Positions 19,169 to 64,000 of a stretch of 64,000 nucleotides of DNA are shown one piece after another. The position numbers and the translations under genes were made by a program. The notes under the pieces are model-generated. The model searched no databases. It saw only the letters and a program-made list of their open reading frames with translations, and was not told the DNA's origin. The stretch covers positions 14,143 through 78,142 of the forward strand of contig JAUCBJ010007816.1 of the NCBI GenBank assembly GCA_032718475.1, written 5' to 3'. Each line of letters begins with the position of its first letter. The first letter of the stretch is position 1. This DNA comes from Nemertoderma westbladi (Eukaryota > Animalia > Xenacoelomorpha).

Positions 19169-19179
19169 GTAATACGCGC
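19169..19179 (+). promoter_or_regulatory. Non-tRNA primer-binding-site position of B (GTAATACGCGC)
   Basis: Directly follows the LTR CA. Complementary to GTGCGTATTAC (18118-18128) and GCGCGTATTAC (30229-30239). Confidence 0.78.
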
Positions 19180-28000: not shown

Positions 28001-28499
28001 ATCTCTGCTCCTGGCCTTGAAGAGATTTATGGCCAGGAGAGGACTAGTAAAGGCGTTCTACTCCGATAAGGGTACAAACTTTGTCGGAGGGAATAGCGAG
28101 TTGAACGCGGCTCATAAAGCGGCACAGAATAAGGAAATTTCTGCAGCACTTTTGCCGCAACGAGTAGAATGGAGATTCAATACTCCTGAAAGTCCTTGGA
28201 GAGGAGGAAGTTGGGAGCGTTTAGTTCGCTCTGTAAAACAGGCCATTGCCAAAACATTGCCTGTGAACAAACAACTTACCGACGACGAACTGGTCACAGC
28301 TTTCATTGAAATCGAGCATACCCTAAACTCGAGGCCGATAGCTATGTTGCCAGACGGTGTTGCATTAACGCCGAATCATTTGCTAATGCAGAGTCCAGCA
28401 TTTCTTGTGCCGGCATCAGAACCCATTAGTGCCGACCTATATAGTCGTAAAACCTATATAGACGGACGCCGTCAACGGAGTCGACTGGAGGTAGATTAG
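24990..28499 (+). pseudogene. pol: pol of B (RT, RNase H, integrase); in-frame stop at 27309-27311, C-terminus deleted
   Basis: YYLPHH, FYMDD, HLFSDAS, NPADITSRG, GVDCFGP, SDKGTNF, GGSWERLVRS, LNSRPI. Confidence 0.95.
26941..27019 (+). repeat. Four 21-bp tandem repeats containing TTGGAGCGG
   Basis: (GAGTCATTGGAGCGGCYTGAA)x~4, encoding SLERLEE/SLERPEE. Confidence 0.9.
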
Positions 28500-29102
28500 T
28501 GTATCTGGGAAGGGGACAAAAGAGAGGAGCGAGCCCAAAGAACCCAGGAGCGGGTCAATAATACATTATGGCACAGGGCGACAGACTCTAGATATATACA
28601 TCATCGTCGCTCTGATGTATATTGTAGCATTTGAAAATTTTCGACTAGACTCGTATATACTAGTTGAGTTATTTGAATTTATATTATGAAAGAGGCGAAG
28701 GAAGTGATTGGGGAGACAAACCTGCGGGTTTGGCTTACTCCTTTCACTTGCCCTAGCAAAATTTTTATATTTGATTTTGTATGTAGTAATCATTATGTAG
28801 TAAGAATGAACGAGAAACAATATTTTGTAAATTTAATTTGTATGTAATAATCGTTAAACAATGAGAGAAACAATATTTTGTAAATTTAATTTGTATGTAA
28901 TAATCGTTAAACAATGAGAGAGATAATATTTTGTAAATTTAATTTGTATGTAATTCATTATGCAATATCTATGGCAATATTTGTAAATAGTAGAATTATT
29001 ATGTTATTTAGATTGGTTGGAAGAAATTTATTTGTTTTGTATACATCACCTTATACTCTTCTACAATTGGAGGGAAACATTATATGATTTCCCTTGGAGC
29101 GG

Positions 29103-31279
29103 TTTTACGGTATATGGCGCTGTATCCACATTATTAGTCGTTATACTGTATGCAGTATTAGTCCGTTATGCAGTATGCAATATTAGTCCGTTATACTGTA
29201 CGTAATATTAGTCCGTTGTGCAGCATGATATTTTAGATAAGGCATAATAACGCAGTGGTATTTAGGTAGGGAAATCAAAACGCCCATATATTTGAAACCA
29301 TCCATTTTGTATAGTATGTAGCCCTACCTACGTAATTTTGTATTAGGATATATGTAGATAGTTCCAGGGTAGCGAGTTTATTCGGACCCTGGATTTTGTG
29401 CTTGCTGATATTAGTTTGATAGGGCTAGCATAGGGACGCCGTCCTGGCCATTCAGTAGCCAGAGACGTGAACCATTACCATATATGGTAATAATTTGAGC
29501 AATAGGGCTACAATCCGGCCTCCTTATTGGATTAACTGCTTCCAGGTTGGTCTAATGCTAGCATGGACTGGAGAGCCAATAGGAGAGCGATTGAGTCACC
29601 TTATTGCATCATCCCATCCGGATCACCTATAAATTGGCGGTGTGCCGGTAAAGCCTCACATGACACATCGATTCTGTTCAACCTGTTTTACTGTTTTTCA
29701 ATCTGTCACTGCTGTTGAGCTGTCTCTAATTTTGTATTAGGATATCGTATTTTCTGCAATTTGCTAATTTGATTAATTTCTTGAAATGATTTGCTAGTGC
29801 GATTACTTGCTTGTGTTTCTCAATAATTCCTTCGATTACTGCTAATTACAATTGAACTATGATTTCTACTCTTTGATTAATGGTTCTATGTGATTCCTTT
29901 CTGCGCAATAATCCTAAGGGATTTCTGAGACTTTCAGACTTTGTGATTTGCATGCGCCGCTACGGTAGCTATTAGCATCATGGAGGGCTAAGGTGCCAGT
30001 GGGCGGTGGGCGCATCGGGGGGTTGAGCGACTAGGAGAGAGCGGAGGATTCAAAGCGGGCAACGCTGGCCAGGGTCACCGTTGCGGGCGGGTATCTTGCA
30101 CTGCGGCACGCAGACCAATCGCTGGTACAGTATCTAGGGGGCTGATGATCCAGGTTTTGTCTCTATTTAGTATTAGGGGGGCAGGAATTGGGTTAGTTAG
30201 GAATCCTAGATGTACCCGGGAGAGGCCTGCGCGTATTACAACGTTGAGTGTGGAGTACGAGTAGTGAATTGCACAATTGTAAACTGTGATTTCTAACGCT
30301 GATTGGTGTGTTATTGAAGTGTGCCTAAGATTACGAATGCTTAGATAGGCGCTCTTTTCCCTTTGATTGATTTCTATTTCTTAGCTACAATAATTAGTTA
30401 TTGATTAGGTCAAAGTAATACGGCAATTTAGGCTATTACTAGCGAAACCTGTTGCGTGATAAATTAGAATTACGTATTCTGGAACTCTTAGTAATTAGTA
30501 CGCTGTTAAATATTTGTGACTGTAATTAATTAGTAAAAATTAAGAATTAGTACGCAGCATAGCGGAGAGTAGCTAAGGTAATAATTAGTGTACTGTAAAC
30601 TATTCACGCTGAGCGGTTATTTGCATTAGCGGGCAATCAGCTAGAACGCACTATTCGGTACGCACGATACGCTAGTAGTTTTGCTGGCCTAAAGCCAGCC
30701 GCGGGCAGTTTTAGACTCGGGGTGGTATTATCCACGTAGAAACAGTTACTGTACCATTTTTGATATTTTAAATATTCTCGCATTCACACATTACGTTAGG
30801 GAACCTCCAGTATTCGCGATTAGAAAGACGTAGGTAATAGCGTGCTTTAATAGTGATAGAATTAGGCGTAGGAATACTCTGAGTGCAAGGCCTCTCGCAC
30901 TCGTCTTAAGTAAGCTTAGGGAGCCGACTCGGGTTTATTGTTTTGGTTATTCCTGCGTGGCTCATAGATTCGAACAGTTAGCTCTCTATCGAGCGATCGG
31001 TAGAGAAAGGAACAAGCGATTTTGCAGGAGTTGTGTAAATTTAGTAAAATATATTAGTGGACGGCAGATTAGCGCCATCCAACGGTAAGTAGCGGTTTTG
31101 TATTTAGCAACCCTTACAATTTAGTAATAGCACGCTCCTGATCCCCTTTACTTAACAGTAGAGCAGTTTTTGTGTCTTATTGGATAGGCGAGAGCTTATT
31201 AGGTTGGCAGAAGGATATTAACGGGTATTGGTCTGTTCAACAGTTCTGCTGTTAGTATAGAGGTCGCGGTTGTTTATCA
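29103..31279 (+). repeat. 3' LTR of B
   Basis: Starts TT (TG in the other copies); preceded by TTGGAGCGG. Confidence 0.96.
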
Positions 31280-32542
31280 ATATATATAATTACTAGGTCC
31301 GGTGTGCATTTTACAAATATTCTAATTTTATAGCTTGTAGGTCCAATACTCACGAATGATAAGGCTCCTTCCCCTTTTGTGTATTTCCAGGACTCAAATT
31401 CAGGCATAAGGTTAATACTACGCCCGGAATTCGGCAATTTAATTTACCAGGTCCCTAATACTAAGAAGAAATGTGTTAGTTTACTACAGTAGGCGTACAG
31501 TTACAAAATAGCTAGCCTGGCGTTCTATCTAGAATTTTGGTTGCCTAGCTGGGCACGGCAACTCCCTATCAGAATGTCGGCGGGGACACGGTAGATGTTA
31601 GTATCCCTAATAGCCTCAATTTATATGCGCCTAGCAGTAAACTGCCCTACCGCCTGAACGGTACAATCCCAATTCAGGTAAAAACACAGTAACCCTTCCT
31701 GGCCTACAAGTTCTAATGCAAATGAACACCGTTGTACTACAAACAGCCACCGACGCACCTATACCTGGCAAATGAGTTAGGCGTACAGCTTGCTGCACCC
31801 TACTAATGTGTATGCCTTGTACTGGTGTGCCTGTGTCCTATCTGTGTACTAGTATCTCTCTGCCTGATCTCTTCCTCCCCCATAGGAATATGAAGGTCTA
31901 CTGCGGGTTTTTCTGAATTAAGACAGTACAGTCCCTAAATGTAATTTTAGCGCACAGCATGTCAGTACCTCTACCTTCGATCTTAGGTCTTACGCTTAGG
32001 TAGCAAGGCATCGAACGCTGTCTAACCTTTCAGGCGATGGGCAAATAACTAAGAATGGGTATTGCGGGTTGTCTCCTTTCTACATTCCTCCGATATTCCC
32101 GTCTATTGCCGCGGTCCGATGTCTAGCCTGCCATCTGTCTCACAGTTGTGTTCACCATGGTGAAACTTAGTAAAAGCAGATGTAACAAATACTTTCTAAC
32201 TTTATTACAAACAAATGATAACTAATATACAATAAATGTAACAAGAAGATTAAGTAAGATAGAATAAGAAGAAGATAACTAATGAACAAAATCGCACCTT
32301 TTATAGCAAATTTGTGCTGCTAACAATCTAGATAAATCTCGATTGTTCTATGAGCTCTACTAGGTTTTTAAAGATAATCATTGGTCCAGCAAACACGTAT
32401 CTTGCACGACATTGATTGCTATCTAATAACTGCAATCGCATTGGTTAATCTACCTTAAGCAGATACAATTAATTCGTAGCGGTTAATTCAAATGAGTTGA
32501 AACTTAGCACAAAAAATAATTCACACTTGCTAGGATTCGAAC

Positions 32543-36238: not shown

Positions 36239-36816
36239 TGTTAGCGAATTCAATTCCGCCAACCACCCCATAAAGTTGGCCAAGCGGGGCCTTTAAGCAA
36301 TATTGGGAGTACGAGGTTGATTGCCAATCAACCTCGTATCACCCCAATAAACGGGGCGACAAACCCCAAAGGAACACAAACACAGCGGGGGTCAGAGATT
36401 ACACCTCCAGGAGGGAGAGAGTGACAGTAGCGGGGGGAAGCACTCCCAGAGAGATGGGAGGGCGAGAATTGGGTTATTAGCCAATGGGAGGCAGGCATCC
36501 ACTGAGTAATGTAATACGGCCAACCAGTGCAATATATTACCAGTTACTGTTCCTCATTTATTCACTTAGTTAGTCAGTTTAGTTAGGGCAGAATGGGAAC
36601 TCTTATTACCGTCTACTGCCGCCACCATCATTCAGCTATTTACCGGTACACTTACTTAACATTCAATAAACTGTGTTTATACTTTATGCAATTATATTAA
36701 ATCCTATATTCATACATACCGATCAATCAACAACCCCAGAACTCTTTTCACACACACACGGCGGGGACGCGTAGATAAGATAACCGGATAAATCGGGATT
36801 CTCGGATCCCGTCACA
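36239..36816 (+). repeat. 5' LTR of D
   Basis: TGTTAG start; CCAAT-like boxes, Inr TCAGTT ~36574, AATAAA 36665. Matches the 3' LTR up to 36784; the end at CA 36816 is inferred from the following GTAATAAGA. Confidence 0.8.
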
Positions 36817-42974: not shown

Positions 42975-43580
42975 CAGTCCACCCCCATGCTGTCCCAGGT
43001 TACTCCCACAGTGTCCAGTCCCTTCACCGCATTGTCCCAGTCCATCCCCATGCTGTCCCAGGTTACTCCCACAGTATCCAGTCCCTTCCCCGCATTGTCC
43101 CAGTCCACCCCCATGCTGTCCCAGGTTACTCCCATATTAGCCAGTCCCTTCCCGGCATTGTCCCAGTCCATCTCCATGCTGACCAATGTTACTCCCACAG
43201 TATCCAGTCCCTTCCCCGCACTGTCCCAGTCCATCCCCATGCTGTCCCAGGTTACTCCCACATTGTCCAGTCCCTTCCCCGCACTGTCCCAGTCCATCCC
43301 CATGCTGTCCCAGGTTACTCCCACATGTCCAGTCCCTTCCCCGCACTGTCCCAGTCCATCCCAATGCTGCCCCAGGTTACTCCCACAGAATCCAGTTCCT
43401 TCCCCGCATTGTCCCAATCCATCCAAATGGTGTCCCAGGTTACCACCACATTGTCCAGCCCCTTCCCCTCAATGTCCCAGTCCATCCCCATGCTGTCCCC
43501 GGGTACTCCAACGGCGCTCCCACCCACTCCCATGGTGTCCCTGTCCAATCCCTTCCCCGCATTGTCCCAGTCCAGTCCCC
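42975..43580 (+). repeat. 63-bp tandem repeat at the 5' end of the LINE
   Basis: Unit encodes SSPFPALSQSIPMLSQVTPTV; about 9.5 copies. Confidence 0.92.
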
Positions 43581-45175: not shown

Positions 45176-47426
45176 TGAGTGGAATATGGGTGCAACATTA
45201 TTGTTAAATTTTCTAAACTTTAATTAAATTTAACTCTTTATACAGTATGTATTTTCATCATGTATAACCATTAATTATTGTATCCATATATTATATTATA
45301 CCATTATATATATATTTAGGCTTTTTTATAATTAGCCAATTTTAATTAAAAATATGATAATTAATTAATTAAATTAATTAATTAAAATAAAAATGGCTAA
45401 TTAAAAATTCTATAAGATAACTTTTGTAGAGTTGATCACGCTGAGTCCAAAAAAGTTGGTTTCAAGAAATTTGGATCAAAATTGAGGGACTAGTAGCAAT
45501 TTTAGTGAAATCTTTAATTCTGCCGCCAGCCGCTAGGGGGAGGCTACAAATTTTCAAATTTTACTATAAAAGCTATTTGGCCTTCCATACAGTTGTTGAC
45601 AATGACAAAATAGCAATATTATCATTTAACACTATTTGACAGCTATTTTAAAAAAAGGTTCATGGGGGGGTATACCCCCCCCCCCCCTTAATATTTGTGT
45701 CCTGGCCGCAATACAAACCAGTATATAAATGATAAATTACGGGGTTTTGCCAGGATATTGTTTCTGATTTAAGGGGTTTTACAGGTTGTTATTTCTGATT
45801 TATGGGGTTTTGCCAGGTGGACTGAATTTCATATACTTGAATTTACGGTGTTTTGCAAGCCAATTATTGACTTGTGGGGTTCTGCCTCGAAGTGGGCATA
45901 AGTTACGGGGAACTGTCTTTGGCTTATAACTCAAAAATGGCTGGTAGAAAAGCTTCGTGGTTCTGCCAGACGAAAAAGCCGATATCGAATTACCCAAAAA
46001 GTCAAAAACATGAAAATAAAAAAAAATCGACTTAGGGGGTTCTGCCTTGAAGGTGACGAAACATACCGGTGGGGGGGGGGGGGGGGACAGGGTGACATTC
46101 CCCCATCACAATATCAACAATACACCCCAATAGGAATAAGAACATCGAACCCCTTGGACGAGAATAGATCGTGCGACACCGAAATATAGAGGGAGCCGCT
46201 ACCCCCTATGATATATCCAAGTCAAAGGAAAGCGGCATACAGCATCCATCGAACCCATTGGAAGCACAAGCAATGGGAATGGCTACACTAATCGATGCAT
46301 TAAAAACTAGGATCGAGTTACCACCCGTAGAACCATTTAAATTCGATGGAAGTAGACCGGAAGAATACCTGCAGTTTCGGCGCATGTATAGTAATGAAAT
46401 ATTGACAAAAAACCTGACACAGGCGGAGTGCCTAAAATATCTGCAAGTGTATACGGGAGGCCCAGCATACGACATCGTGAGGCAATACCAGGGCATCGAG
46501 GGCAGCTTCACGACGGCATGGCGGGCATTAGACAGGGAGTATGGGCACCCGGCCAAGATCATCCGGCAGACCCTGAGGGGTATAACATCGGGTGGCCTAC
46601 AGGATAACCCCGTTAGCAGCTAGCATAAAGACATTTGCAAACAAAGTTGAGAAGGAGCTAATCGTGCTAAAGACGCTGGACGCACCATACGAACTCAACG
46701 CGTCTAACAACATCACCACGATAGCGCAGGCACTGCCGATGTGGCTGCGCAACAAGTGGAGGAAGATTGCTTTCTCCACTCGAGACAGGAAGGGTGCGGA
46801 ACCGGGTTTAGAAGAGATGTCGAGCTTCTTAAATTATGAAGCCGAACTAATAACGGACCCAGTCTATAGCGAGGATAGCCTGGGAAAGGGACCAAAGACC
46901 GAATACCACAGGCCGAAACCCAGAACATAACGCGGCGAACGCATTGCCAAAGCTCAGACAATCACTGCCGTATGCGGCGACGCAGGGGACTGCTAGTCCA
47001 CAAGTAGCCGGGGGTAAGACCACATCATGGAGCGGACAGGGGAAAAATAACAACACAAATAAACATAACCCCAGCACGCCCAGTAGGCCGAACCCAAGCA
47101 ATAAGAACAGTAGGGACTTTGGTACAAACGCAAGTGCGATACGCAGCGCACTGTATAAGGACGGCTACAACCCAAAGAACAAATGCCAATTACATACAAA
47201 TGCACTTCATCAGACCATGAACTGCAGGTATTGGCAAGCGCTACCCAGGGAAGATCAGGTAGAATACGCGAGGAGAAATGAAATTTGTTCAACCAATGCA
47301 AGGAAACGCCAATAGTAAAGGTCAGACGATGGCAATGAGCACCGTAGGGGCAAAGAAGAGAGGAATGGTACTACTTGGGGTAGTACCAGTGCGAGTGATT
47401 GGGGAAGGCCAAGTAGGCCAAGTAGA

Positions 47427-50400
47427 ATGGCGGTAACAACCATCTCCAGCAAAGATGAGGTCCTGGAGATGAGGACCGGACGGTGCGCGATAGCAGCGAT
47501 AGCACCGGGATGCGACTATGGGGCAACCATCGACCCCATCCAGGTGATAGAGTCGATAAATATCAATGCCAGGTGGACAACCAACATCGAGGTCGAACAA
47601 TACAAGTTCCTGGACAGTATCGACTTCTCAATCCCAGAGGTGGACGTTAGGAAGGTATCCATTATAGTAGGAATGGACTGTCCGACGGCCCACGAGAGAA
47701 TGCAAAAGGTCTTCGGCGAAGACAGGCAGTGTGTCCCGGTGGCGATTTTAACACCATTCGGGTGGACGCTGAGCGGCCCAATAAGGAGCAAAATACCGTT
47801 TAGGATGTCGGAGACATCAGGATGCATGTTCGCAGGAACTATGCGAGAAATGGGAGATGAGGGAGCGGAGGAGCAGCTCAGGAGACTGCTCAGGCAGGAT
47901 TTAGAGGGATTAAAAGAGACCGGGGTCGGAACCTCGGTAGAAGACAAGCAGGCTTTACAAAGTGTAAAGGAATCGATGACATGCGACGAGGGGCGGTATA
48001 CCATAGGGATGGTATGGAAGCTACCGAAGTTACCGCTACCCGACAATAAAGGAATGGTACTCACAAGGCTTCGTAAGTTGAAGCAGACACTAAAACGGAG
48101 CCCTGAGAAGAATGAGTACATTCACAAGACGATTAAGAAGTATGTCGAGAAAGGATGGGCCGTGGAGTTACCGGTCGACGAACCAAACACGGACAGGACC
48201 TATTACCTGCCACTCCACGTTGCTCTAGACCCGAAGAAAGGTAAACTGCGGATGGTAGTTGACGCATCGGCTAAAACCAGCGGCAAATGCCTAAACGATT
48301 ATCTGCTGGAGGGTCCCAACATCTACAACTCAGGGATCGAGGTCCTACTCAGATTCAGGAATGGGAAACACGCTTTCACCTGCGACATCGAAGGCATGTT
48401 CAACCAAGTCCGTGTAACGGAAGAGGATAGCGACAGTCAGCGCTTCCTATGGTACAACGGCGACGAGGAACCGTCAACCATACCGATGTATAAGATGGTA
48501 GTACAGAATATGGGAGCCAAGTCGTCTTCATTTACGACGACTGTGGCCGTAAGAGACACGGTAAAAGGGAAGGAAGATAAATATAGCGCCAAAGCCGTCG
48601 ATATGATTCGACGCGGCTTCTATGTAGACGACGGGATGGAATCTGGAAATATGGTTAAGGAACTACTGGATACCGGGCGCGAGGTTCGCGACATCCTAAA
48701 AGGATCCGGGTTTAACCAAACCAAGTTCCAATCCAGCTCGCAAGAGTTCATGAAAGCCATAGAGGACAGGAGGCCAGAGTCGACCATGGATAATCCCACG
48801 ACAGCCAAGGGACAGGACATGGTGAACAAGAGAGTAGAGTCCCAACAGAAGGCACTAGGGATCGTGTGGAACCGAGAGACAGACGAGTTGAAATACAAGT
48901 TGAGTCAGGAGGGCGCAGACATCCACACAAAGAGGGGCTATGTTTCGTACATAGCAAGGATATACGATCCCCTAGGCCTAGCATTCCCATTACCAGTCAC
49001 GGGGAAACAGATACTCAAGAAAGTATACAAACTGAAGGAGGGTTGGGACACAGAGGTCCCGGAAGAGATCAGCAAGCAATGGAGCAAGTGGACAGAGAGT
49101 TTAGAGCAGATGGGAACATACAGCATGCCACGCGTATATTTCCCGGTTGGGGACATGACGAATCTGGATCTGCACATGTTCTCCGATGCGTCATTAGAGG
49201 CATACGGAGCGGCACTCTACTTAGTACAACGAGAGGGGGCTCACAAGCCCAGACTCGCATTCAGCAAGGCGAAGTCGATGCCGGCAGATTCAGCATCAGT
49301 TCCAAAACTCGAGTTGACAGCTGCGAGGTTAGGAGTTAGGGCCACAGCCTACTTGATGGACGCAATTCCAAACATAGTGGAAACACACTACTGGACGGAC
49401 TCCATGGTAGTGCTTGGTTGGCAGAGTGACACAGAACCATTTGAAGTGTTATGGGGTGTCCTCCAAGGAGACACACTTGCACCATTCTTGTTCATTATTG
49501 TCGTTGACTATGTTCTACGCATGTCCTTAGATCATTATAATGATGATGGGGTGATGATAACTCCACCTACTGGCTCCAGAATTCGAGGAAATCCTGCCAA
49601 GTACCTAACTGATCTAGACTTTGCTGATGACTTAGGAGTACTCTCAGAATCATTAGAGGGAGCCCAACGGCTCCTCAGCTCATTAGAACATGCTGCTTCT
49701 AGTGTTGGTCTTTTTATTAACTCCAGAAAGACCAAAATTCTGACAGTTAACTTTGAAAGTCCTCAGCAAGTCTCTGATCGGATGAGCATAAGCTCAAAGG
49801 ATGGTATGCTTGAGCATGTGGACGACTTCTGTTACCTGGGATCATGGATCCGGAAGTCAGGTGAGGACCTTCGAATACGTAAGGGAAAGGCATGGGCAGC
49901 CTTGAATAGGCTTTCCAGGATTTGGAAGTCACTGAGAATTAATCAGAAACTTAAGGTCCGATTATTTAGAGCAGCAGTAGTTCCAGTACTCCTCTACGGG
50001 AGTCCATGCTGGGCTCTAACTGCTGAGGACACCAAATCTCTGGATGGCACATTCACAAGAATGCTACGCCGGGTTCATTGTGTCAAGTACAATGCACACA
50101 TCTTCAACCAGACACTATATAACATTGAAGGTGTCTCATTGGTTCCCCCAAGCTTGACACTAGAACAAAATCGCCTCCGCTTTGCAGGACATTGCTTTCG
50201 CCGCGAGGACCAGCCAGTGCATAATCTGGTACTTTGGCAGCCTCATGGAGTGAATAAGCATGGTGGACAGCCCATGACTTTCTTGAGACGCATCTTAAAG
50301 GACACTGGCCTTGAAGATGCGGATGATCTAGCAAATGTCATGGGTGATATGGAGTTGTGGCGGTGCAATTTTGTTGACAAGCCGGCACAGCATTCTTAAA

Positions 50401-52330
50401 AATGCAGCTGCAATGCAGCATGCCGATCCTAGTAGTAGTAGTAGTACACATATCCAACCAGACACTATATAACATTGGAGGTGTCTCATTGGTACCCCCA
50501 TGCTTGACACTAGAACAAAATCGCCTCCGCTTTGCAGGACATTGCTTTTGCCGTGAGGACCAGCCAGTGCATAATCTTGTACTTTGGCAGCCTCATGGAG
50601 TGAATAAGCATGGTGGACAGCCCATGACTTTCTTGAGACGCATCTTAAAGGACACTGGCTTTAAAGATGCGGATGATCTAGCAAATGTCATGGGTGATAG
50701 GGAGTTGTGGCGGTGCAATTTTGTTGACAAGCCGGCACAGCATTCTTAAAAATGCAGCTGCAATGCAGCATGCCGATCCTAGTAGTAGTAGTAGTAGTTG
50801 GTTGGCTACACAATGAGAGGACGAGATACCCTATATTTGTCGCAAATAGGGTGGACGAGATAAGAGCGACGACAGAATTGGAAAGGTGGCACTACTGCCC
50901 AACGGACGAGAACCCAGCGGACTTGTTATCGAGGGGCGTAGCACACCACACTTTCTTAAAAAAGGAAGTATTGTGGCAGCACGGGTCTCAATTTCTGAAC
51001 GATAGAACAGCCTGGCCGCCGATGAGGAAGGTGGACCCGGGCTCAGGGGAAGTAGCATTAGAGGAAGAGGGAGGAGATTCAGAAGATGAGGAGATATACA
51101 GCCAGATGGTGAGGGAGATAAGGGACGTGCAACCGAAACCGGAAGAACTGTGCGATAACCCGACGGACAAACTCCTTAGCTACAGCTCAAGTTGGTACAA
51201 GACCAAGAAGTTAGTGGCGTACTGGAGAGCCTTCGGGGACTTCCTTAAGGGAATCGGTAAAGACACAAAAGGTAAAACAACCCCGTCGATCTGGAGGGGG
51301 CGGCCAAGGCCGTCATCCGCTACGAACAAAGGAAGAATTACGGCGACGAGGTGGAGCGCGTCGGTAAACAACAGCATCTCCGACGGGACAGTGAGCTGAT
51401 CGTGCTGTCGCCACAACTCAATGATGATGGAATCTTAGTAATGAACTCTAGGGTGTTGAACAACAACAGTATCATCATTCTGCCAAAGCCCATCATCATC
51501 CCTAATGGATCGCAGATGGTCCACCAGATCATTAGGGACTCCCATAAGTCGATATTGCACGGGGGCACCAACCGAACCCTCACGGAGATACGAAGGACCT
51601 TTTGGGTCAAACAGTTAAGAAAGAAGGTAAAGGTGGTAGTGGGGCAGTGCCAGACCTGCCGACGAACGAAGAAGGAGCGAGCCATACAGGAGATGGCGCC
51701 ACTACCGGCCAGTAGGGTGAGACAGCACGACCCGCCATTCACGCACTGTGGTGTGGATATGTTCGGGCCAATAAAGATTAAGGTGATGCGGCACACGGAG
51801 AAGCGCTACGGCATTATCTTCGTATGTAACAACACGCGGGCGGTAGGGATAGAACTCACCCAAGATGCAACAGCATCGGCATTCATCAATGCCCTAGAGA
51901 GGTTCAGAGACCGCAAAGGTGGGACGATCACAGTAATATACTCCGACAACGGAACCAACTTTGTGGGGGCAGAGAACGAGCTGGCGGATGCCTTGGACAT
52001 CATGGAAGGGGAAGAAGTCAGGGCAGCCATGAGAAGACAAGAGGTGAAGTGGGAGAGGGGGACGCCGTATGCTCCGCATACTCTAGGATGCGTTGAGAGA
52101 CTTGTGGGTAGTTCCAAGCGTCTGATGACGAAGTTGATGAACACCCACATGGTAACCGAGGACATCCTAAGGACAGTACTAGCGAAGTCACGGACGATAC
52201 CATCATCAACAACCAATGGCGATTGGCGAGAGTTGTGGGCACTTACTCCGATGAGGACGGAAGAGTCCGATCGGTAGAAGTGCGGATAGGTGGTAAGATA
52301 GGAGCGAAAGATAGAAAGACCTACAGAAGG
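47427..52330 (+). pseudogene. pol: pol of D (partial PR, RT, RNase H, integrase), interrupted by an RTE-like LINE
   Basis: YYLPLH..KLRMVVDAS, FYVDD, HMFSDAS, PKLELTAA, YWTDS, NPADLLSRG, GVDMFGP, SDNGTNF. Confidence 0.93.
49423..50797 (+). mobile_element. 5'-truncated RTE-like LINE with duplicated 3' end and (GTA)n tails
   Basis: GVLQGDTLAPFLF, LDFADD, YLGS, LLYGS..W, RLRFAGHC. 9-bp TSD TTGGTTGGC (49414-49422, 50798-50806). Confidence 0.92.
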
Positions 52331-52477
52331 GCTGTAGGAAAGTGCTGCCTGCTAGAGGGCGCACCTTAGTCGAGTTGAGTTTAGTCGTCCAAGTATTGGA
52401 CTGAGGGTGGTGGGATTGAGGGCGAGACGCCCTTCCCACACATAAAAAAAAAAAAATAAATAAATAAAGAAAGAGTA

Positions 52478-53135
52478 AGTAGGCAGATAGTTAGATAGAT
52501 AGTTAAGTAGGCAGATAGTTAGATAGATAGTTAAGTAGTAAGAGGGTACGTAGTACCGCTAGTTAGATAGTTAGTTAGTAGTAAGAGGGTACGTAGTACC
52601 GTTAGTTAGATAGTTAGTTAGTAGTAAGAGGGTACGTAGTACTGTTAGTTGAGAGAGAGTTAGAGGTTAGTAAGAGGGTACGTAGTACCGGTTAGTAGGA
52701 GTTAGTTAGAGGTTAGTAAGAGGGTACGTAGTACCGGTTAGTAGGAGTTAGTTAGAGGTTAGTAAGAGGGTACGTAGTACCGGTTAGTAGGAGTTAGTTA
52801 GAGGTTAGTAAGAGGGTACGTAGTACCGGTTAGTAGGAGTTAGTTAGAAGTTAGTAAGAGGGTACGTAGTGCCGGTTAGTGAGAGTTAGTGGAGTTAGAA
52901 GTTAGTAAGAGGGTACGTAGTACCGGTTAGTATGAGTTAGTGGAGTTAGAAGTTAGTAAGAGGGTACGTAGTACCGGTTAGTAAGAGTTAGAAGTTAGTA
53001 AGAGGGTACGTAGTACCGGTTAGTAAGAGTTAGTGGAGTTAGAAGTTAGTAAGAGGGTACGTAGTACCGGTTAGTAAGAGTTGGTGGAGTTAGAAGTTAG
53101 TAAGAGGGTACGTGGTACCGGTTAGTAAGTGTTAG
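52478..53135 (+). repeat. Tandem array (~40-49 bp units) between pol and the accessory ORF of D
   Basis: Core GTTAGTAAGAGGGTACGTAGTACC repeated about 14 times. Confidence 0.92.
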
Positions 53136-53567
53136 TGGTGGAAGGGTATGTATAATATAAATATTAGTTAGTAGTGAGTAGTGAGAGGGGGGCACGTGAG
53201 TACAGCTGGATAAATCGTGTAGGCCACGCGACCCATACTGTTGTACTGCACAAGCCCACAGAGTAGGCCAGAACGTGGATTATAGAATAGAATAATCCAT
53301 TGGCGGAATAAGTAGTAGCACAGTAGTAGGATTGAATTAAATTAAAAATAGAATAAAAGGTAGAAATTAGACAAATTATGGTAACAGTAGGGAAAATTAT
53401 TCTGGAACATAATTAAAGTAACGGACAAAATTGCGAAATTTAGTACAATTCGGTAGTTTTAGAAAATTAGTTAGGAAAATTAGGCTATAACTTAGGTTTC
53501 TTGGAGAAGTAGGCCATTATCGAACTGAATAAACCATCCTAACGTTATCACTCATCTGTACAGCGCC

Positions 53568-56182
53568 TTGGCAAGGCACCACCTTACAGGTGAGCGGGTG
53601 AGAGAGTTCGAAATGGCGGAGAAACTGGTCAGAAAGAGAAAGGCGGAGTTAGGAGGAAAGGAGATACTGGTGGATTTCACCGAGAGGCATCCGGAAGAAA
53701 AGACGAGGGGATACTACGAGCGGTTAGAGAGAGGTCACAAAGCGCGAGCGCTACAGGACCATTTCAGGGAGGTGCACGAACAGCGGCTGGTTGGGACCTA
53801 CGGGATGCCGTCGCTGGACAACGCGATCTTCGAGCATTTCCACTACGTGGTGAAGGGAGACGAGGCGAAGTTCGGGATTCCGAAGTACGCGAAGGAACCA
53901 CCGAGAAAGGATTGGAAGAGGTTCGTAGAGTCCGTGAGCAGGGGAGGATACATGGTCCTAGACGATGAGGGGACCGTAGAAGGACGAGGAAGGTTCGAGA
54001 AGAGGATCGGCAGGGTCGGCCAGAACCATACTCCTACATTTGGCCGCGCCAAATGGGGACATTTTCCTATTCGACCTGGGAACGTATGGGAAGAAGAAGA
54101 GGCCGAAGTTGGACCGGTTGCCAAAGGCGGTGCAAACCCTAGTGAGAGAGAAGTCAACGACGAAGGTGGGATCGGCGATCCGCGACGATGCGGAGAGAAT
54201 CATCGGTCCGGACACCCCCAACCTCCTGGACATGCAGATGGTCTACATGGCTATGACAGCACCAGACGGGTTGGGACTAGTGGAGAACTCAGGCCATTGT
54301 GGAGCGGTGGCGATGGGCCAGCTAATGGGGCTCGTGTGTCACAAACCAATGGACTGGAGTAAGTTCAGAGAGGAGTACGGAGCAGGAGTTGGCGAACTCG
54401 CTGAAGTGGGGAGCGAGGCCAGGGAAACAAGAGGTGTATCAATTCCGGAGAGGAGCGATAAAGGTATATCAGAAGCGATATATCCTGCAGGAGGACTGGA
54501 TAATGATGGGTTTGCTTAACCTATTCATGACCGTGGTTATCGAGAGGGAACCAACGGCATTCCTGCTATCGGGATCACCCCTGAACTACAGAAGAGCCTT
54601 CAAGACGGCTTTCGAGGGTCTGGTAGACCACCCGGGGCTGAAGGGCGAGTCGGTGTACTATAACTGCCGACATCTGGTAGACGGGGAGGTGGATACGCCA
54701 TATCAGAGATGGGAGCAGCTAGAGGCGGATAGACGAGAAGCGAAGCGATTGGAAGAAATCGCTAGACAGGAAAGGAGAGAGGCAGAGGAAAGGGAGGAAG
54801 AAGCTAGAGCGCAGAGCTACGGCTTCGAGGAACAGGCGGCCTTAGACGAACTTCGTTGGACGTCATCAGGGAGTTCGGGGGAGTCTCTAGGGCGAGAATT
54901 AGGGTGGACGGTGGGATCACCGAAACAGTCGACATCGGGATTGCAGACGACGCCCATACCAGCGGGCGCCGAGGGCGATCACCCGCTAAGGAGGCTAGGG
55001 GAGCTGGAAGGATGGAAAGTCACGGGCGAGAGCCAAGGTGGGAAGGGACGCAGTGGGTCCACCGGGATACCGGGGTTGGAGCCACTCCCAGAGGAGGATG
55101 AGGATGACGACGAGTTCGGAGAGATGCCGCCCATCGGGAGAATCGGCCACTCGGACACGGACTGGGTTGGCGGGAGGGTGGTGATGGCCAGTGGGGCGAG
55201 GGCCTTCTGGGATAGACCCGGCAAGCGGGCCTGGGTGCATGAGGAGCCGGCGATGGATTTCGCGGGGAGCACCATCAGGTTGGGCGAGCAACCGGGAACG
55301 GCACCACGGGTAGTATTCGGGGAGACGATGCCCGGGAGGGGCGAGGAGATCGACGTGGACAGGGACGCTAACGTCCAGAAGTTCGCTTACCAGCGACTCC
55401 ACAGACCGCGGAGATCGCTTGGGACGAAAGACGACGTGGGGCGGGAGACATTGGTGCTCGGCTGTGATTACTGTGGGAGGCAAACCCACCAGGAAAGGAG
55501 CTGTCTGTACCGGTTCCAGAAAGGGACTAGTTGTCTCTACTGCCGCGAGTCGAGCCACAGGATGGGGGCGTGTCCACGGTTGCACAACCGGTGTTCGAAG
55601 TGCAACTTCCGGGGGCACTACGGACGCCAGTGCGACTGGATGGACGACGAAGAGAAGTTTAGGATCTTCGAGGAGTGGGCCGACGTCGGGGCCATGACTC
55701 GGCAACGTATGAAGGCCCAGGAGTTCCGGTGGGGCTTCTTTAATATCAACCAGGAGGCCCACTTGGAGATTATCAAACGGAGACTTCCGTTTACCTACCA
55801 GGAGGTAGCGACGGCGGCGTCGTATGCCGGGGTGATAAATACGCAGAGGTATTTGGACAGGTGGACGCCACAGAACAGAGGGGAGTTCAGAGATTTCTTG
55901 GCGGAGCATGTGCCGCGGGCGATGAAAGTGATCCTATGGGACGCCACCAGGGGGAGACAACAGGGCCACTCGGAGGGGCCACCCGCGAAGCGATACCGGG
56001 AGCTAATAACACCAGCGCCCAAGGAGTCGACGACCGGGATTAGTAGAGAGGTGACGGCGAGGGTCAGGAGTCTGAAGGGAGATAAGACCAAGGGAGCGGC
56101 AGCGGCCAGGAAACGACCAAGAGAAGAGGACGACAGAGGGAAGGACTTGAGATGGTTCCCAAAGTCAGGTGGAACGAACTAG
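53568..56182 (+). pseudogene. Accessory ORF of D: DnaQ-like 3'-5' exonuclease plus three CCHC zinc knuckles (two frameshifts)
   Basis: VLDDEG; AAPNGDIFLFDL; LPKAVQTLV..TKVGSAIRDD; LLDMQ; YILQE; CDYC..H....C, CLYC..H....C, CSKC..GH....C. Confidence 0.82.
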
Positions 56183-56865
56183 GACTTGGATGTGGGATGC
56201 CTGGAAGGCACCACGTGAGAAGTACGAACTCCTAACTGCAAAATTTAAATAATTAAAAGTGCAATTAGTATGTACGTATGTAGTAATCATTAGTCTAGTA
56301 AGCAAATATAATCAAAGTAAGTACTATAGCCATATAACCTTTTTCCAATTAGCTACTGGGACTGGGGACCAATTGACTATGGTACTGTGAATCACAAACA
56401 AGACATTGGACGAAATCACACTTCTTGAGTGCGACGGCACAGGAGGGGGGTGAGACTCGTCAGGAGTGAGCGGGTGAGATAGGGTTCGAAAAGAGTGCGG
56501 GTGCAATTCAAGTGTGGGGGGGGAGGGGGGGAGTAAGAGGCCAGAGTGAGGGACTAGGAGGTCCGAGAGTTAGAGCGGAAGTTAAGAGAAGTAGTGGAGA
56601 GTCAGGGTGAGAGTAGAGGTAGAGTTAGAGTGGCGAGAGTGTTGGGGAAACAAAAAATCATGTGAAGAGAAAGTCACGATCGGCCCGACACGGGACGCCA
56701 GAAAGACGGGGTAGCGATATCATACCCTTAGGGAGCGGCCTGGAAAGCCGGCTCCGAAGAAAATAATTCCACCCCACACCCGATAGTAGATCGGGATCCA
56801 GTGGAATTGTAGCGCACTAGAGGTGGATGCTATCTTCTCACCGGGAAGATAGCATGGGGGGGGAG

Positions 56866-57411
56866 TGTTAGCGAATTCAATTCCGCCAACCACCCCATAA
56901 AGTTGGCCAAGCGGGGCCTTTAAGCAATATTGGGAGTACGAGGTTGATTGCCAATCAACCTCGTATCACCCCAATAAACGGGGCGACAAACCCCAAAGGA
57001 ACACACACACAGCGGGGGTCAGAGGTTACACCTCCGGGAGGGAGAGAGTGACAGTAGCGGGGGGAAGCACTCCCAGAGAGATGGGAGGGCGAGAATTGGG
57101 TTATTAGCCAATGGGAGGCAGGCATCCACTGAGTAATGTACTACGGCCAACCAGTGCAATATATTACCAGTTACTGTTCCTCATTTATTCACTTACTTAG
57201 TCAGTTTAGTTAGGGCAGAACGGGAACTCTTATTACCGTCTACTGCTGCCACCATCATTCCGCTATTTACCGGTACACTTACTTAACATTCAATCAACTG
57301 TGTTTATACTTTATTCAATTATATTATATCCTATATTCATACATACCGATCAATCAACAACACCAGAACTCTTTTCACACACACAAGGTGGGGACGCGTA
57401 GATAAGATAAC
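56866..57411 (+). repeat. 3' LTR of D (3'-truncated)
   Basis: Direct repeat of 36239-36784. Confidence 0.92.
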
Positions 57412-58387
57412 TGATTTTTGCATTCCTCTCATTCCCGTTCTGCCTCGAGCTTTCGTTCCTCTCATTTCCGTTCCGCCTAGAGCTTTCATTCCTCTCGTTT
57501 CTTTTCCGCCTCTTCTGCTTCATGCTTTCATTCTTCTGCTCTGCGCTTTTGTTCTTCTGCTTCGCGCTTTCGTTCTTCTGCTTCGCTTTCATTCCTCCGC
57601 TTCGTACTTAAGTTCGTCTTCCACCTGATTGTCTAATTGTTTTAATCTATTATGTTTTTCCTCCTTGATCCGATCCATATTCGCCTTTTGTTGCTAAATC
57701 CATTTCTTGATTGATATCCTTTAGGATTTTCTTGGTGGTGGGACTAGTTGGGAGATGTATGTCCACGTAATCTCCTTATCAGCTCTTCTTCCCCCACTCC
57801 CTTTATGTATTCTCCCAAGTGATTGCGAATAGCTGTTTGATTTTCGGGTTCAGTTTGGGTGTACCCTTCAACGACACTAATTATGGACGGATGGTCGGAA
57901 TGTAACGGTATTGCAGTCACATAAAGAATAGGGGTTTGGTCACTAAGGGAACTGTCTGAAGCGCTCTTGTTGGCAATCGAACGATAAGACATTTTTACTA
58001 AATATTATTTCAACAAAAATTTATTTTTTATTAACCCTGTTTGTGATTGTTATGCCTTCCATTTATTGTCGACAATTTATTGTAACAACAATAATATATT
58101 ACAAATAATTATTACAATTGCACCCAAATAAATAACATGGTATTATTTCAACTCACAAATCGACAATCACTGGTAAATAATATGGGACCAGTAATTTATC
58201 TGTGTAGAATATGCCATGATAAATATTTTGTTTCACCGCTAGGTGGGGATAATTATCAGGTTTAACTCTTTACAAGCAGGAATATCACCAAGAGCAATGA
58301 ATTATCTCCTATTGGTTCAGAGATTAGTATAACTCAACAGTAATGAAGGTGAGGCTAGCTTAGGTAGTATACCGGTATTAGGAATGG

Positions 58388-61300
58388 TGATAAACAACCG
58401 CGACCTCTATACTAACAGCAGAACTGTTGAACAGACCAATACCCGTTAATATTCTTCTGCCAACCTAATGAGCTCTCGCCTAACCAATAAGACACAAAGA
58501 CTGCTCTACTGTTAAGTAAAGGGGATCAGGAGCGTGATATTACTAAATTGTAAGGGTTGCTAAATACAAAACCGCTACTTACCGTTGGATGGCGCTAATC
58601 TGCCGTCCGCTAATATATTTTACTAAATTTACACAACTCCTGCAAAATCGCTTGTTCCTTTCTCTACCGATTGCTCGATAGAGAGCTAACTGTTCGAATC
58701 TATGAGCCACGCGAGAATAACCAAAACAATAAACCCGAGTCGGCTCCCTAAGCTTACTTAAGACGAGTGCGAGAGGCCTTGCACTCAGAGTATTCCTACG
58801 CCTAATTCTATCACTTATTAAAGCACGCTATTACCTACGTCTTTTCTAATCGCGAATACTGGGGGTTCTCTAACGTAATGTGTGAATGCGAGAATATTTA
58901 AATATCAAAATGGTACAGTATTTGTCTCTCGTGGATAGTACCGCTCTGGGTCTAAACTTGCCTGCAGCTGGCTTTAGGCCAGCAAATTACTAGCGTTTCG
59001 TGCGTACCGAATAGTGCGATCTAGCTGATTGCCCGCTAATGCAAATAACCGCTCAGCGTGAATAGTTTACAGTACTCTAATTATTACCTTAGCTACTCTC
59101 CGCTATGCTGCGTACTAATTCTTAATTTTTACTAATCAATTACAGTCACAAATATTTAACAGCGTACTAATTACTAAGAGTTCCAGAATACGTAATTCTA
59201 ATTTATCACGCAACAGGTTTCGCTAGTAATAGCCTAAATTGCCGTATTACTTTGACCTAATCAGTAACTAATTGTTGTAACTAAGAAATAGAAATCAATC
59301 AAAGAGAAAAGAGCGCCTACCTAAACATTCACAATCATAGGCACACTTCAGTAACACACCAATCAGCGTCAGCAATCACAGTTCGCAATTATGCAGTTAA
59401 CTACTGTATAGCCCACAATTATGCGACTCACTATTCGTACTCCACACTCAACGTTGTGATACGTGCAGGCCTCTCCCGGGTACATATAGGACTCCTAACT
59501 AACCTGATTCCTGCCCCCCTAATACTAAATAGAGACGAAACCTGGATCATCAGCCCCCTAATTACTGTACCAGCGATTGGTCTGCATACCACAGCGTAAA
59601 CTTCCCGACCGCAACGGTGACCCCCCGCCAGCGTTGCTCGCTTTTGAATCCTCCGCTCTCCCTTCGTCGCTAACCCCCCGATGTGCCCACCGCCCACTGG
59701 CGCCTTAGCCCTCCATTATGCTAATAGCTACCGTAGCGGCGCATGCAAATCACAAAGTCTGACAGTCTCAGAAATCCCTTAGGATTATTGCGCAGAAAGG
59801 AATCACATAGAACCATTAATCAAAAGGTAGAAATCATAGTTCCAGTTGTAATTAGCAGTAATCGAAGGAATTAATTGAGAAACACAATCAAGAGTAATCG
59901 CACTAGCAAATCATTTCAAGAAACTAATCAAAATTGGCAGAAAATACACTAAAATATCCGTCAAAAATTGAATAGAGACAGCTCAGCAAGTACAAAGGTG
60001 ATAGCAGATCATGTGAGGTGTCATGTGAGGCTCTACCGGCACACCGCCAATTTATAGGTGATCCGGGTGGGGTGATGCAATAGGGTGACTCAATCGCTCT
60101 CCTATTGGCTCTCCAGTCCGTGCTAGCATTAGACCAACCTGGAAGCAGTTAGTCCAATAAGGAGGCCGGATTGTAGCCCTATTGCTTGCCCAAACCTCAA
60201 ATTATTACCATATATGGTAATGGTTCACGTCCCTGGCTGCTGAATGGCCAGGACAGCGTCCCTTATGCTAGCCCTATTGATGCTAATATCAGCAAGCACA
60301 AAATCCAGGGTCCGAATAAACTCGCTACCCTGGAACTATCTACATATATCCTAATACAAAATTACGTAGGTAGGGCTACATACTATACAAAATGGATGGA
60401 TTCAAATATATGGGTGTTTCGATTTCCCTATCTAAATACCACTGCGTTATTATGCCTTATCTAAAATATTATGCTGCACAACGGACTAATATTACGTACA
60501 GTATAACGGACTAATATTGCATACTGCATAACGACTAATATTGCATACTGCATAATGACTAATATATGTGGATACAGCGCCATATACCGTAACACCGCTC
60601 CAAGGGAAATCATATAATGTTTCCCTCCAATTGTAGAAGAGTATAAGGTGATGTATACAAAACAAAATAAATTTCTTCCAACTAATCTAAATACTTGATA
60701 CTATAAGTCCTACTATTTACAAAATATTGCTATAGATATTGCATAATGAATTGCATACAAATTAAATTTACAAATATTATCTCTCTCTCATTGTTAACGA
60801 TTATTACATACAAATTAAATTTACAAAATATTGTTTCTCGTTCGTTCTTACTACATAATGATTACTACATACAAAATCAAATATATAAAATTTTGCTAGG
60901 GCAAGTGAAAGGAGTAAGCCAAACCCGCAGGTTTGTCTCCCCAATCACTTCCTTCGCCTCTCTCATAATATAAATTCAAAATAACTCAACTAGTGTATAT
61001 GAGTCTAGTCGAAGATTTCCAAATGCTACAATATACATCAGAGCGACGATGATGTATATATCTAGAGTCTGTCGCCCTGTGCTATAATGTATTATCGACC
61101 CGCTCCTGGGTTCTTTGGGCTCGCTCCTCTCTTTCGCCCCCTTCCCAGATACACTAATCGTCCTCCAGTCGACTCCGTTGACGGCGTCCGTGAGGCGTCA
61201 CTCCCCGGAACCGGCGACGACGTTCCCTGAGCCCCGACAGATTCCCGGCTTGTACTTCTCCCTCGGCCTCGTCCCAATTGTCGCGCTCCCGTGGTCGCTT

Positions 61301-64000
61301 CCGCCAACTCTTCCTTATGCAGTTGCACACGCGCTTTTTCAGACGCTCCCTGCGCCTTGCGCTGCAACCTTTGCGCTTCTATAATAGAGTGGTAGTGGTC
61401 GTCCTTGACTTGACGCTTGTCTTGGACCCCTCCTCCTGGTTCCTTCCGCGAGCCTTGAGCTCCAGCGGTCGTCGCTGTGGTCGCTGCGATCCTTTGTTCC
61501 TGTATCCTCTCAGCGGTCAATGAACCCACTGGCACATGAGTCAACAAGAATTCGTTGCGGTATTGTATAGCCGCCATCCTCCAATCACCTCGCGCGCGTA
61601 CCACTTTTCTAGTCTCCGTAAATACACCCTTCGTGATGCGATCGCAAATAGCAACGAAGTTCCAGGTGTACTTATTGTCCATATTCAATTGTCTGAAGTA
61701 TTCTCGGACTACGATAACTCCAGTGTTCTGTGGAAGGTCTTGAGCAGTTAGGATGAGTTCCTGATATTGTGGTAGCGATTGTAGATATGGCTCGTACGCA
61801 ACATGCGATGGGTCTACCGCCCAAAACCCATATCCCGCTTTAAATGGTAACCAACGCATCTGCGCTTGAATATGGTAATCCGCCACACTCTCCCACTTAT
61901 CTAACATCTCCCGAAGTAGGTTAGCGCTATGGTTTTGAAAGGAATCATCTCGCAGCTGACATCTCGCGCTACGATGTCCCTTTACCCCACAATATCCACA
62001 TTGAGAAATGAAGACGGTGCACGTGTGAAACGAATGGTCGGTCTCATTACACCAACGACAGACCTTATGCGCCGCCTCTACTACCGCGTCGCACGACTTT
62101 AGATTGTGCCTTGTGCTGCCGCACAATTTGCACCTACGCGCTTGTGGAAACCAGGCCCTCTCGTATATGAGGTCTCCAATCGGTTTCGCACTTCCTTCCT
62201 TCCCAATGTCTAATACGATGTCGTCCTCTCCGGTCAACGGTTGTCGATCCGGAACAAAGTAAACATCCTCGCCCTTGTCCTCTATCTCCAATATTTCCTC
62301 CCGCGTTCGTTTCGGATATGTCTTCTCCACCGGAAGATCTACTCCGAACACCTCTACTAACGTCTCCGGCCAGCCCTCCTTAACAGGTCTATCAGCCTCC
62401 GAGTGGAAGGGAGTACCAAACCCGCGGGTTTGATTCCCGAACCACTTCTCCAAAGCTTCTGGCGTCGGATATTCCATCGACGGTCGGTCTCCCAAATCTC
62501 CGATGTTCTGTCGATATACTCCTTCGAATATCGCTAATCCTCTCCTCACCATCGACGTATTCTCTAACGATTGGTTGAAGAACGGGGTTAAGAAACGCTT
62601 CATCACGTCGGATTGGATTCCCCCTTTCGAGCGAACGTATTGATCTCCTCCGAATACCAATGGATGACGCTTCAAAACTCGCGCAACGATATCCGCTAAT
62701 AAACAAGTCACCGTGTTCGACTCAAGCACCAAATAATATTGTAGCGACGCACGGGGTGGCGCGCAAATGTTCCAATACACTAACGCTTGCCGCTTGAAGT
62801 GGGATTTGAACTCCGCTCCCGGTGGCGTGTTGTATTCGCCATACGCCTCCTCGTACTTCTTCTGCGTCTTTAACTTAAAGTCCCAATTATACAACAAGTG
62901 TGCTATAAAGCCCATACCAGTCTTGGCAGAGTTGGGATACTCCCTATAAATTCCAATATCCTGTGCCCATAGCAACAATAGCTTGGTGTCGACAAACGGT
63001 CTCGGCAATCTATCTTCCAGATCAGTCATGGCGTTGAAGTCGCTCTCCAAATCGCTCTGGACTCCCGATCCCACCTTGACGTAATCTTGGTTGAGAATAG
63101 CCTCTCTAACTTTCTTGGGTAACATCCTGGCGTCGATACGCTCCGCTCCGTGCATACCTCCTCGCCTGCATACCTCCAAAATCTGTTCCCTAGGATCCTT
63201 CCCCTTCCGATATTGTGTCGTTATGATGGGCTCCGGTCTCTCTCGATCCGCCCTCACACGCATAAACACATGAGTCACACCATCGGCCGCACGAATTTGA
63301 ATACACTTGCTAGTCAAACATTCCTGATGGGACCCTCCTTCATTGTCGTAGAACATCACCCTCCAATCCTGCAGTGATTCCTCCGTTTTCCTCCACTGAC
63401 GCTGAATCTCGTCTGATGGGGTCCACATGCGCTCGATAGCCTTGTGGTCATCATATCGGGTATAAGAACCCTTCCTCCTCAGCCACGTCTGGTCTACCTC
63501 CTCGTCGTCTGGGAATGTAGCCACCGCGACCCATACCTTGATGTACTTATCCAACCATCCGAATAGTTTGCTCTCCTTCCCCGGAGCTCCAATCTTATCC
63601 AATGTGTCGTAATCTGTGATCTGCATTGGGACATCACGCAAGAACTTCGCGCATAAAACTTCCCGTAGACAGTCAACGTTCCAATGGTCCGCCATTCTTA
63701 CCATCGGCAAGAATCGTATCGCTTCTCGCGACTCCGGATGATCTACTAATATCGCAGGTTCGGTGCCGTCGGAATAATACACCGGTCCGGGTTGAGATAC
63801 GACCTGTGGAACAAATCCGGTCACTCTCCTCGTCTCCTCTTGATGTCTATCCGCGGTCTTATTATACTCCGCTATCCTGTTCTCAAATAACTCTTTCGCC
63901 TTCGCCGCTCGCTCCTCCTGCCGCAACGCGTCTATGTCGTCCTGATGCTCAGGCGTGAGGCTTCTCGCTCGGTGAGGTGAAGTAAACGCAGTCCAGGGAC
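58388..64000 (-). mobile_element. LTR retrotransposon C, B-family relative (3' LTR, 3' UTR and accessory ORF; continues beyond the window)
   Basis: 58388-60594 is a diverged reverse complement of the B LTR. The 3' UTR matches 28500-29102. PPT TTGGAGCGG at 60595-60603. Confidence 0.93.
61092..63926 (-). CDS. Accessory protein of C: WRN/EXD/Mut-7-like 3'-5' exonuclease domain plus three CCHC knuckles (944 aa as called; true start uncertain)
   Basis: FYDNEG; CIQIRAADG; LPKKVREAILNQDYVKVGSGVQSD; FVDT; YLVLE; CKLC..H....C, CRWC..H....C, CGYC..GH....C. Confidence 0.88.
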   Translation of the reverse strand: MRQEERAAKAKELFENRIAEYNKTADRHQEETRRVTGFVPQVVSQPGPVYYSDGTEPAILVDHPESREAIRFLPMVRMADHWNVDCLREVLCAKFLRDVPMQITDYDTLDKIGAPGKESKLFGWLDKYIKVWVAVATFPDDEEVDQTWLRRKGSYTRYDDHKAIERMWTPSDEIQRQWRKTEESLQDWRVMFYDNEGGSHQECLTSKCIQIRAADGVTHVFMRVRADRERPEPIITTQYRKGKDPREQILEVCRRGGMHGAERIDARMLPKKVREAILNQDYVKVGSGVQSDLESDFNAMTDLEDRLPRPFVDTKLLLLWAQDIGIYREYPNSAKTGMGFIAHLLYNWDFKLKTQKKYEEAYGEYNTPPGAEFKSHFKRQALVYWNICAPPRASLQYYLVLESNTVTCLLADIVARVLKRHPLVFGGDQYVRSKGGIQSDVMKRFLTPFFNQSLENTSMVRRGLAIFEGVYRQNIGDLGDRPSMEYPTPEALEKWFGNQTRGFGTPFHSEADRPVKEGWPETLVEVFGVDLPVEKTYPKRTREEILEIEDKGEDVYFVPDRQPLTGEDDIVLDIGKEGSAKPIGDLIYERAWFPQARRCKLCGSTRHNLKSCDAVVEAAHKVCRWCNETDHSFHTCTVFISQCGYCGVKGHRSARCQLRDDSFQNHSANLLREMLDKWESVADYHIQAQMRWLPFKAGYGFWAVDPSHVAYEPYLQSLPQYQELILTAQDLPQNTGVIVVREYFRQLNMDNKYTWNFVAICDRITKGVFTETRKVVRARGDWRMAAIQYRNEFLLTHVPVGSLTAERIQEQRIAATTATTAGAQGSRKEPGGGVQDKRQVKDDHYHSIIEAQRLQRKAQGASEKARVQLHKEELAEATTGARQLGRGRGRSTSRESVGAQGTSSPVPGSDASRTPSTESTGGRLVYLGRGRKRGASPKNPGAGR

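Follow-up and report, generated by a model that had tools for sequence, protein, structure and literature searches.

A third gene of BEL/Pao retrotransposons in Nemertoderma westbladi encodes a predicted DEDDy-fold exonuclease with three CCHC knuckles

We found that two divergent BEL/Pao retrotransposon families in a 64,000-nucleotide stretch of Nemertoderma westbladi DNA (contig JAUCBJ010007816.1, here the window) carry a third gene, ORF3, in which a predicted DEDDy-fold 3'-5' exonuclease is followed by three CCHC knuckles. The reading we favour, tentatively and at slightly less than an even chance, is that the product of this conserved gene trims RNA 3' ends, probably as a counter-defence against RNA tailing or small-RNA silencing. 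A broader version, in which ORF3 represents an old family of RNA 3'-end enzymes that is widespread among transposons and whose active, non-canonical D-E-D-E exonuclease and three-knuckle reader erase host U-tails or nibble piRNAs, making it an enzymatic suppressor of both defences borne by a retrotransposon, is in our view doubtful.

The window consists of nested retroelements, among which four BEL/Pao elements (A, B, C and D) were told apart by self-comparison and Pfam. DUF1759 and Peptidase_A17 (E 1e-38 to 1e-40) were detected in A, B and D, with integrase downstream as the last domain of pol. Element C enters from the right edge of the window on the minus strand, and its ORF3 and 3' LTR alone lie inside. 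The elements and their parts are as follows.

about 17 kb, minus strand: element A, one LTR of which carries the inserted B
4024..5374, minus strand: ORF3 of A, in two frames, Cys/His-containing, without exonuclease or knuckles
16994..31280, plus strand: element B, a family-C copy with BEL/Pao gag-pol, 14.3 kb without ORF3
16994-19171 and 29104-31280, plus strand: LTRs of B
36239-57411, plus strand: whole element D, holding several later insertions
36239..36784, plus strand: 5' LTR of D, 14 mismatches in 540 nt against the 3' LTR (97.4%)
46168..52277, plus strand: D gag core and BEL/Pao pol (DUF1759, RT, Peptidase_A17, integrase), integrase at 51276-52277
52476..53138, plus strand: tandem array of 46/51-nt units between D pol and D ORF3
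56866..57411, plus strand: 3' LTR of D, a G-rich polypurine tract directly before it
58388..60594, minus strand: 3' LTR of C, about 90% identical to the B LTRs

The ORF3 of family C was open over 944 aa, and as the frame continues to the window edge its true start may lie outside. It comprises, in order, a charged N-terminal segment, the DEDDy-fold domain, an acidic linker, three knuckles with profile matches to Lin28, TbRND and nucleocapsid knuckles, a helical block with a GF aromatic motif (the GFF block) and a low-complexity basic tail. The D copy is frameshifted and runs through three frames, with breaks between about 53973-54028 and 54382-54428. Every Exo, knuckle and GFF motif that a preliminary description of this DNA had named was found in place in both genes, including the glutamate that replaces the last catalytic aspartate.

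61092..63926, minus strand: C ORF3, 944 aa, ATG at 63926, upstream of the LTR at 58388-60594
62667..63359, minus strand: C exonuclease domain (aa ~190-420), with ExoI-III motifs and a fold match
63336-63350, minus strand: C ExoI (D194/E196)
63051-63077, minus strand: C ExoII (D292)
62718-62738, minus strand: C ExoIII (Y398/E402)
61959..62132, minus strand: C knuckles (aa 599-656), three CX2CX4HX4C with exact spacing
61758..61919, minus strand: conserved block after the C knuckles (GF aromatic motif, LP..Y.E), for which no family name was found
53613..56182, plus strand: D ORF3, ATG at 53613, three frames in this copy, after the integrase and tandem array and before the polypurine tract and LTR
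53958-53972, plus strand: D ExoI
54163-54189, plus strand: D ExoII
54479-54496, plus strand: D ExoIII
55463-55633, plus strand: D knuckles, three exact CX2CX4HX4C
55730-55804, plus strand: D GFF block

Over the knuckle and GFF region the two proteins were 24% identical across 237 aa, a score that none of 300 shuffles matched. Besides their six knuckles, all six frames of the window contained two further CX2CX4HX4C knuckles, both in gag. A profile built from outside homologues alone recovered C (E 8e-39), frame 3 of D (E 1e-28) and frame 2 of D (E 3e-8), with no other significant match among 1397 six-frame segments of the window. The ExoI and ExoIII pieces of D could be placed in the profile columns expected for them, though the alignments were weak (hhalign E 0.007 and 0.01, probability 4-6%). 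Two side observations concern the body of D. Its pol is interrupted by an in-frame LINE-type RT fragment (49400-50796), inside which lies a 350-nt tandem duplication (50096-50796), and its gag contains a 19-nt satellite (40914-41805).

Those outside homologues came from a phmmer search of 1.84 billion representatives, which returned 7 unnamed metagenomic proteins of 514-715 aa (E 1.5e-11 to 2.4e-4). In all seven the GFF block was present along with three motifs resembling knuckles, the spacing of which varied in some, and six had a recognisable exonuclease ahead of them. Nuclease-domain identity within the family was 18-29%. The ExoI D/E pair was kept in C and in 5/7 homologues (one lacked the N-terminus and one had K), the ExoII aspartate in 6/7 and the ExoIII acid in 6/7. 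One homologue, P0001, had lost the ExoI glutamate, the ExoII aspartate and ExoIII, while its triple-knuckle-GFF module was doubled (L001 124-2022); that a catalytically dead member kept and doubled the module suggests that selection can act on RNA binding even where catalysis is lost. Word-index searches added no relatives, and neither these nor phmmer found a close cellular match. The genomic context of the homologues gave no match in viral contigs, and in metagenomes only the protein's own 3.7-kb contig, with no pol on it.

Pfam at its cut-off matched neither ORF3, and the homologue P0002 reached only E 0.2. HRDC had no Pfam match in C, D or the 7 homologues, but Pfam misses their nuclease domain too; HEAT and MUT7-C were likewise without a match in the ORF3s. 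A profile search with the C domain reached EXD2 only at E 0.6-0.7. Structure prediction, another check proposed at the outset, did support a DEDDy-type fold. ESM features of C scored 0.91 to a PF01612 cluster, and a model of C aa 100-450 (mean pLDDT 53, pTM 0.57) matched EXD2 (E 4e-4) and Rrp6 (E 8e-4) in Foldseek, among 4 matches at E <=0.001. In a VIA search of 48,161 chains the best match was the Nibbler EXO domain (Z 11.1, rmsd 3.8, 190 residues aligned), followed by diDNase (11.0), apPol (10.8), Exd1 (10.4), Rrp6 (10.2), RNase D (9.9), WRN (9.6) and TbRND (9.3). All of the best 50 rows were, by title, DnaQ/DEDD-type exonuclease domains. The N-terminal domain of C is thus predicted to adopt a DnaQ/DEDDy exonuclease fold. 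As nucleases of RNA and of DNA tie for the top Z scores, the fold names neither the substrate nor the donor family. Two candidates were set aside. Two VP4 chains in the PDB (phmmer of the C domain, E 0.009 and 0.24) were taken as chance matches, and Egalitarian, the top row only of an earlier model with pLDDT 42, a misaligned ExoI and no E below 0.001, was dropped from the donor ranking.

Residues D194, E196, D292 and Y398 of C lie in conserved columns, and the model places them at the end of a strand and on two helices. The strand-turn-strand that follows D194/E196 fits the usual DEDDy start. The fourth catalytic acid was glutamate in C, D, P0002 and P0007, aspartate in P0003-P0006 and absent in P0001 (n=9). 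A glutamate four residues after the ExoIII tyrosine makes this a DEDDy-fold variant, not canonical DEDD. The substitution could matter, as the ExoIII aspartate of TbRND binds metal A directly and its loss nearly abolishes cleavage, according to the consulted sections of PMC7797062; a literature search for data on a D-to-E change at ExoIII found none. That this position is acidic in 8/9 members at 18-29% identity suggests that metal binding has been kept. Judged from these residues, the odds that C ORF3 is catalytically active appear a little better than even.

The link between C and BEL/Pao gag-pol runs through B. Positions 28462-31279 of B were 90% identical to 61191-58388 of C, and the integrase frame of B joins the final ~100 nt of a C-type ORF3 at a deletion junction (28461/28462). 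From this identity and this junction we infer that B is a family-C copy from which a single deletion removed the final part of pol along with almost the whole of ORF3. Element C has its 5' half outside the window, and its ORF3 is on this sequence evidence assigned to a BEL/Pao gag-pol, while D carries Peptidase_A17 and DUF1759 itself, so that the BEL/Pao identity first proposed for both carriers holds, directly for D and via B for C. The pol of B was 52% identical to that of A and only 30-36% to that of D, which indicates that C and D are distant lineages with a common ORF3, in keeping with their initial description as divergent families.

B also shows that ORF3 is dispensable in cis. Its 2.18-kb LTRs differ by 7 mismatches and it is flanked by a 5-bp target duplication (a target-site duplication was sought around D and none was found); recent insertion of a copy that lacks ORF3 and the last part of pol implies help in trans. 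The ORF3 of A had one 68-aa C-terminal block in common with that of C (0/300 shuffles reached the score) and did not match the ORF3 family profile; to judge by this block, it could be related to the C gene and have been remodelled. In size, Belpaoviridae are given LTRs of 0.2-1.2 kb and elements of 4-10 kb (PMC8742986), ranges exceeded here by LTRs of 2.18 kb (16994-19171, 29104-31280, 58388-60594) and by elements of 14-17 kb.

Selection on ORF3 was assessed from contigs of two DNA runs, each from a different study; one of the runs may be the source sample. Matches to 821 nt of the C nuclease domain occurred in 963 and 407 contigs at 85-100% identity. Summed depth over the C and D ORF3s was 70-130x that of the stretch between elements, which is not a copy number. 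Between 62600 and 63420 in C, 21/21 variants at a share of at least 10% were synonymous, 20 of them at third positions, with no indel among the variants listed. Against 0.34 expected for transitions this gives p 2e-10, the null being the transition expectation alone. In D, 15/26 variants were synonymous (p 0.01; among 40 of 873 rows, with a damaged copy as reference). The C nuclease domain is under strong purifying selection, weaker in D in the rows listed, and the 21/21 synonymous variants argue that it is not neutral cargo. Neither an absent DnaQ fold nor neutral evolution in isolated copies, the two outcomes that would have spoken against the preliminary description, was observed.

In the mechanism we propose, ORF3 would be expressed from its own, probably spliced, message, by analogy with other ORF3s. 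The knuckles would grip single-stranded RNA and, in the manner of trypanosome RNase D, guide the choice of substrate, and D194, E196, D292 and E402 would carry out two-metal catalysis with Y398. The substrate could be U-tails that mark element RNA for decay, or else the host's small RNAs and precursors of these. Trimming of RNA 3' ends as a counter-defence is favoured on three precedents. The nuclease of TbRND is joined through a linker to four CCHC fingers, which raise U-rich RNA binding and cleavage (consulted sections of PMC7797062); hosts add U-tails to LINE-1 and RNA virus RNAs, and uridylation restricts both (consulted parts of the review PMC7988573); and Nibbler trims piRNA 3' ends (bioRxiv 2023.12.20.572533, as far as consulted). 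With TbRND as structural precedent, the original suggestion of an RNA-processing factor is, by analogy, a sound inference. The anti-piRNA role suggested with it would concern just one of several possible substrates.

A pseudo-nuclease that does not cut would account for part of the same evidence. It might bind element RNA so that this is exported, transported or shielded, or it might serve as a decoy to the host partners of EXD1 or Nibbler. The ExoIII glutamate in C, D, P0002 and P0007 and the dead P0001 fit such an adaptor, as does the place of Exd1 among the tied top folds. There are precedents in the sections consulted of two papers: the exonuclease-homology domain of Egalitarian binds I-factor RNA with its catalytic residues dispensable (PMC13186709), and CERV is an LTR element that encodes its own export factor (PMC10309623). 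However, the remaining catalytic residues are kept in proteins that are only 20-29% identical, with position four acidic in all but one member, whereas dead enzymes would usually drift, as P0001 has, and we consider an adaptor possible but unlikely. The tie of polymerase proofreading domains and WRN with RNases would equally suit a helper on the DNA side of the particle, proofreading or polishing cDNA 3' ends with the knuckles as a second nucleocapsid and so permitting very long elements; B, at 14.3 kb without ORF3, is indeed long against the 4-10 kb of the family (PMC8742986). But A reaches ~17 kb without the nuclease, B moved recently without the gene (trans supply is possible) and ORF3 is not fused to pol, which leaves this reading quite improbable.

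The top, though tied, fold match to Nibbler could instead point to a self-limiting or host-serving factor that channels element RNA into small-RNA production in the manner of Mut-7 or Nibbler, a possibility raised for rotifer ORF3s in the consulted part of PMC5408684. The abundance of the families (by depth, not copy number) and selection across copies fit benefit to the element, and we give the self-limiting reading little credence. Least credible of all is that ORF3 is an env gene or a piece of host DNA carried along neutrally. The D copy is broken, the nuclease is absent from B and A, and the gene sits in the env position, but a gene whose common variants in the C nuclease domain are all synonymous and which is shared by elements with such divergent pol, with no close cellular match found, is hardly neutral. 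A hydropathy peak of 1.34 over 19 residues, with no transmembrane segment in ORF3, led us to reject an env-like membrane protein.

The favoured RNA 3'-trimming enzyme has partial counterparts among known systems. DEDDy ORF3s are described in the bdelloid rotifer LTR retrotransposons Juno and Vesta and in Athena/Terminon elements (consulted sections of PMC5408684 and PMC6431247). They too encode an RNase D-like DEDDy domain, sit between pol and 3' LTR, lack a membrane segment and are distributed patchily among related families; reviews give the same account of them. In those sections, however, the carriers are Gypsy-like (Juno/Vesta) or Penelope-like, not BEL/Pao; the motif is written DEED, against D-E-D-E or DEDD here (compared by description, not sequence); only a Cys-His-Cys motif in Vesta2/5 is described, not a triple-knuckle and GFF module; and no significant departure from neutrality is reported (PMC5408684), in contrast to the strong selection in C. 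TbRND (PDB 7c42-7c4c) has the same order of DEDDy nuclease, linker and tandem CCHC knuckles (knuckle profile E 7e-5), but it is, in the text consulted, a cellular enzyme located in the mitochondrion; its fingers number four and its linker spans 28 aa, whereas ORF3 has three knuckles, a linker of ~180-330 aa and the GFF block. The fold match is only 14% identical, so the architecture is probably convergent. Nibbler/Mut-7/EXD3, EXD1, EXD2, WRN-exo and Rrp6 (PF01612) share the fold and ExoI-III layout at 7-16% identity.

Only env-like third genes are listed for BEL/Pao in the ICTV profile (PMC8742986) and in the portion consulted of a BEL/Pao survey, where 'exonuclease' occurs 0 times (PMC3118150). 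A literature search outside Repbase, GyDB and subscription journals for an exonuclease in BEL/Pao found only the rotifer work. Within the sources consulted, some in part, BEL/Pao carriers, the three-knuckle ORF3 family and purifying selection on it were not found in print, while DEDDy ORF3s on LTR elements are already published (PMC5408684). The role of DEDDy nucleases on LTR retrotransposons has been open since 2017, the rotifer examples having given neither activity nor a sign of selection. C extends the question to a second superfamily: its gene is intact, under strong purifying selection and equipped with a predicted RNA-binding module of its own. Natural aspartate, glutamate and dead versions of the active site, together with natural loss in B and A, make the question testable in vitro. 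Few suppressors of animal RNA defence are known to be encoded by transposons; if the favoured reading is true, an enzymatic one would be new.

Other repeats were observed in the window. In A, a 12-nt coding repeat (8010-8190) separates RNase H from integrase, and B has a repeat-rich insert at the same place. Two non-LTR retroelement 3' ends, 68% related, were found at 32686-34752 (minus strand) and 42944-45175 (plus strand). Pfam was nearly silent on both; we take them to encode a C-terminal zinc finger and a restriction-like endonuclease motif. A tandem array precedes each.
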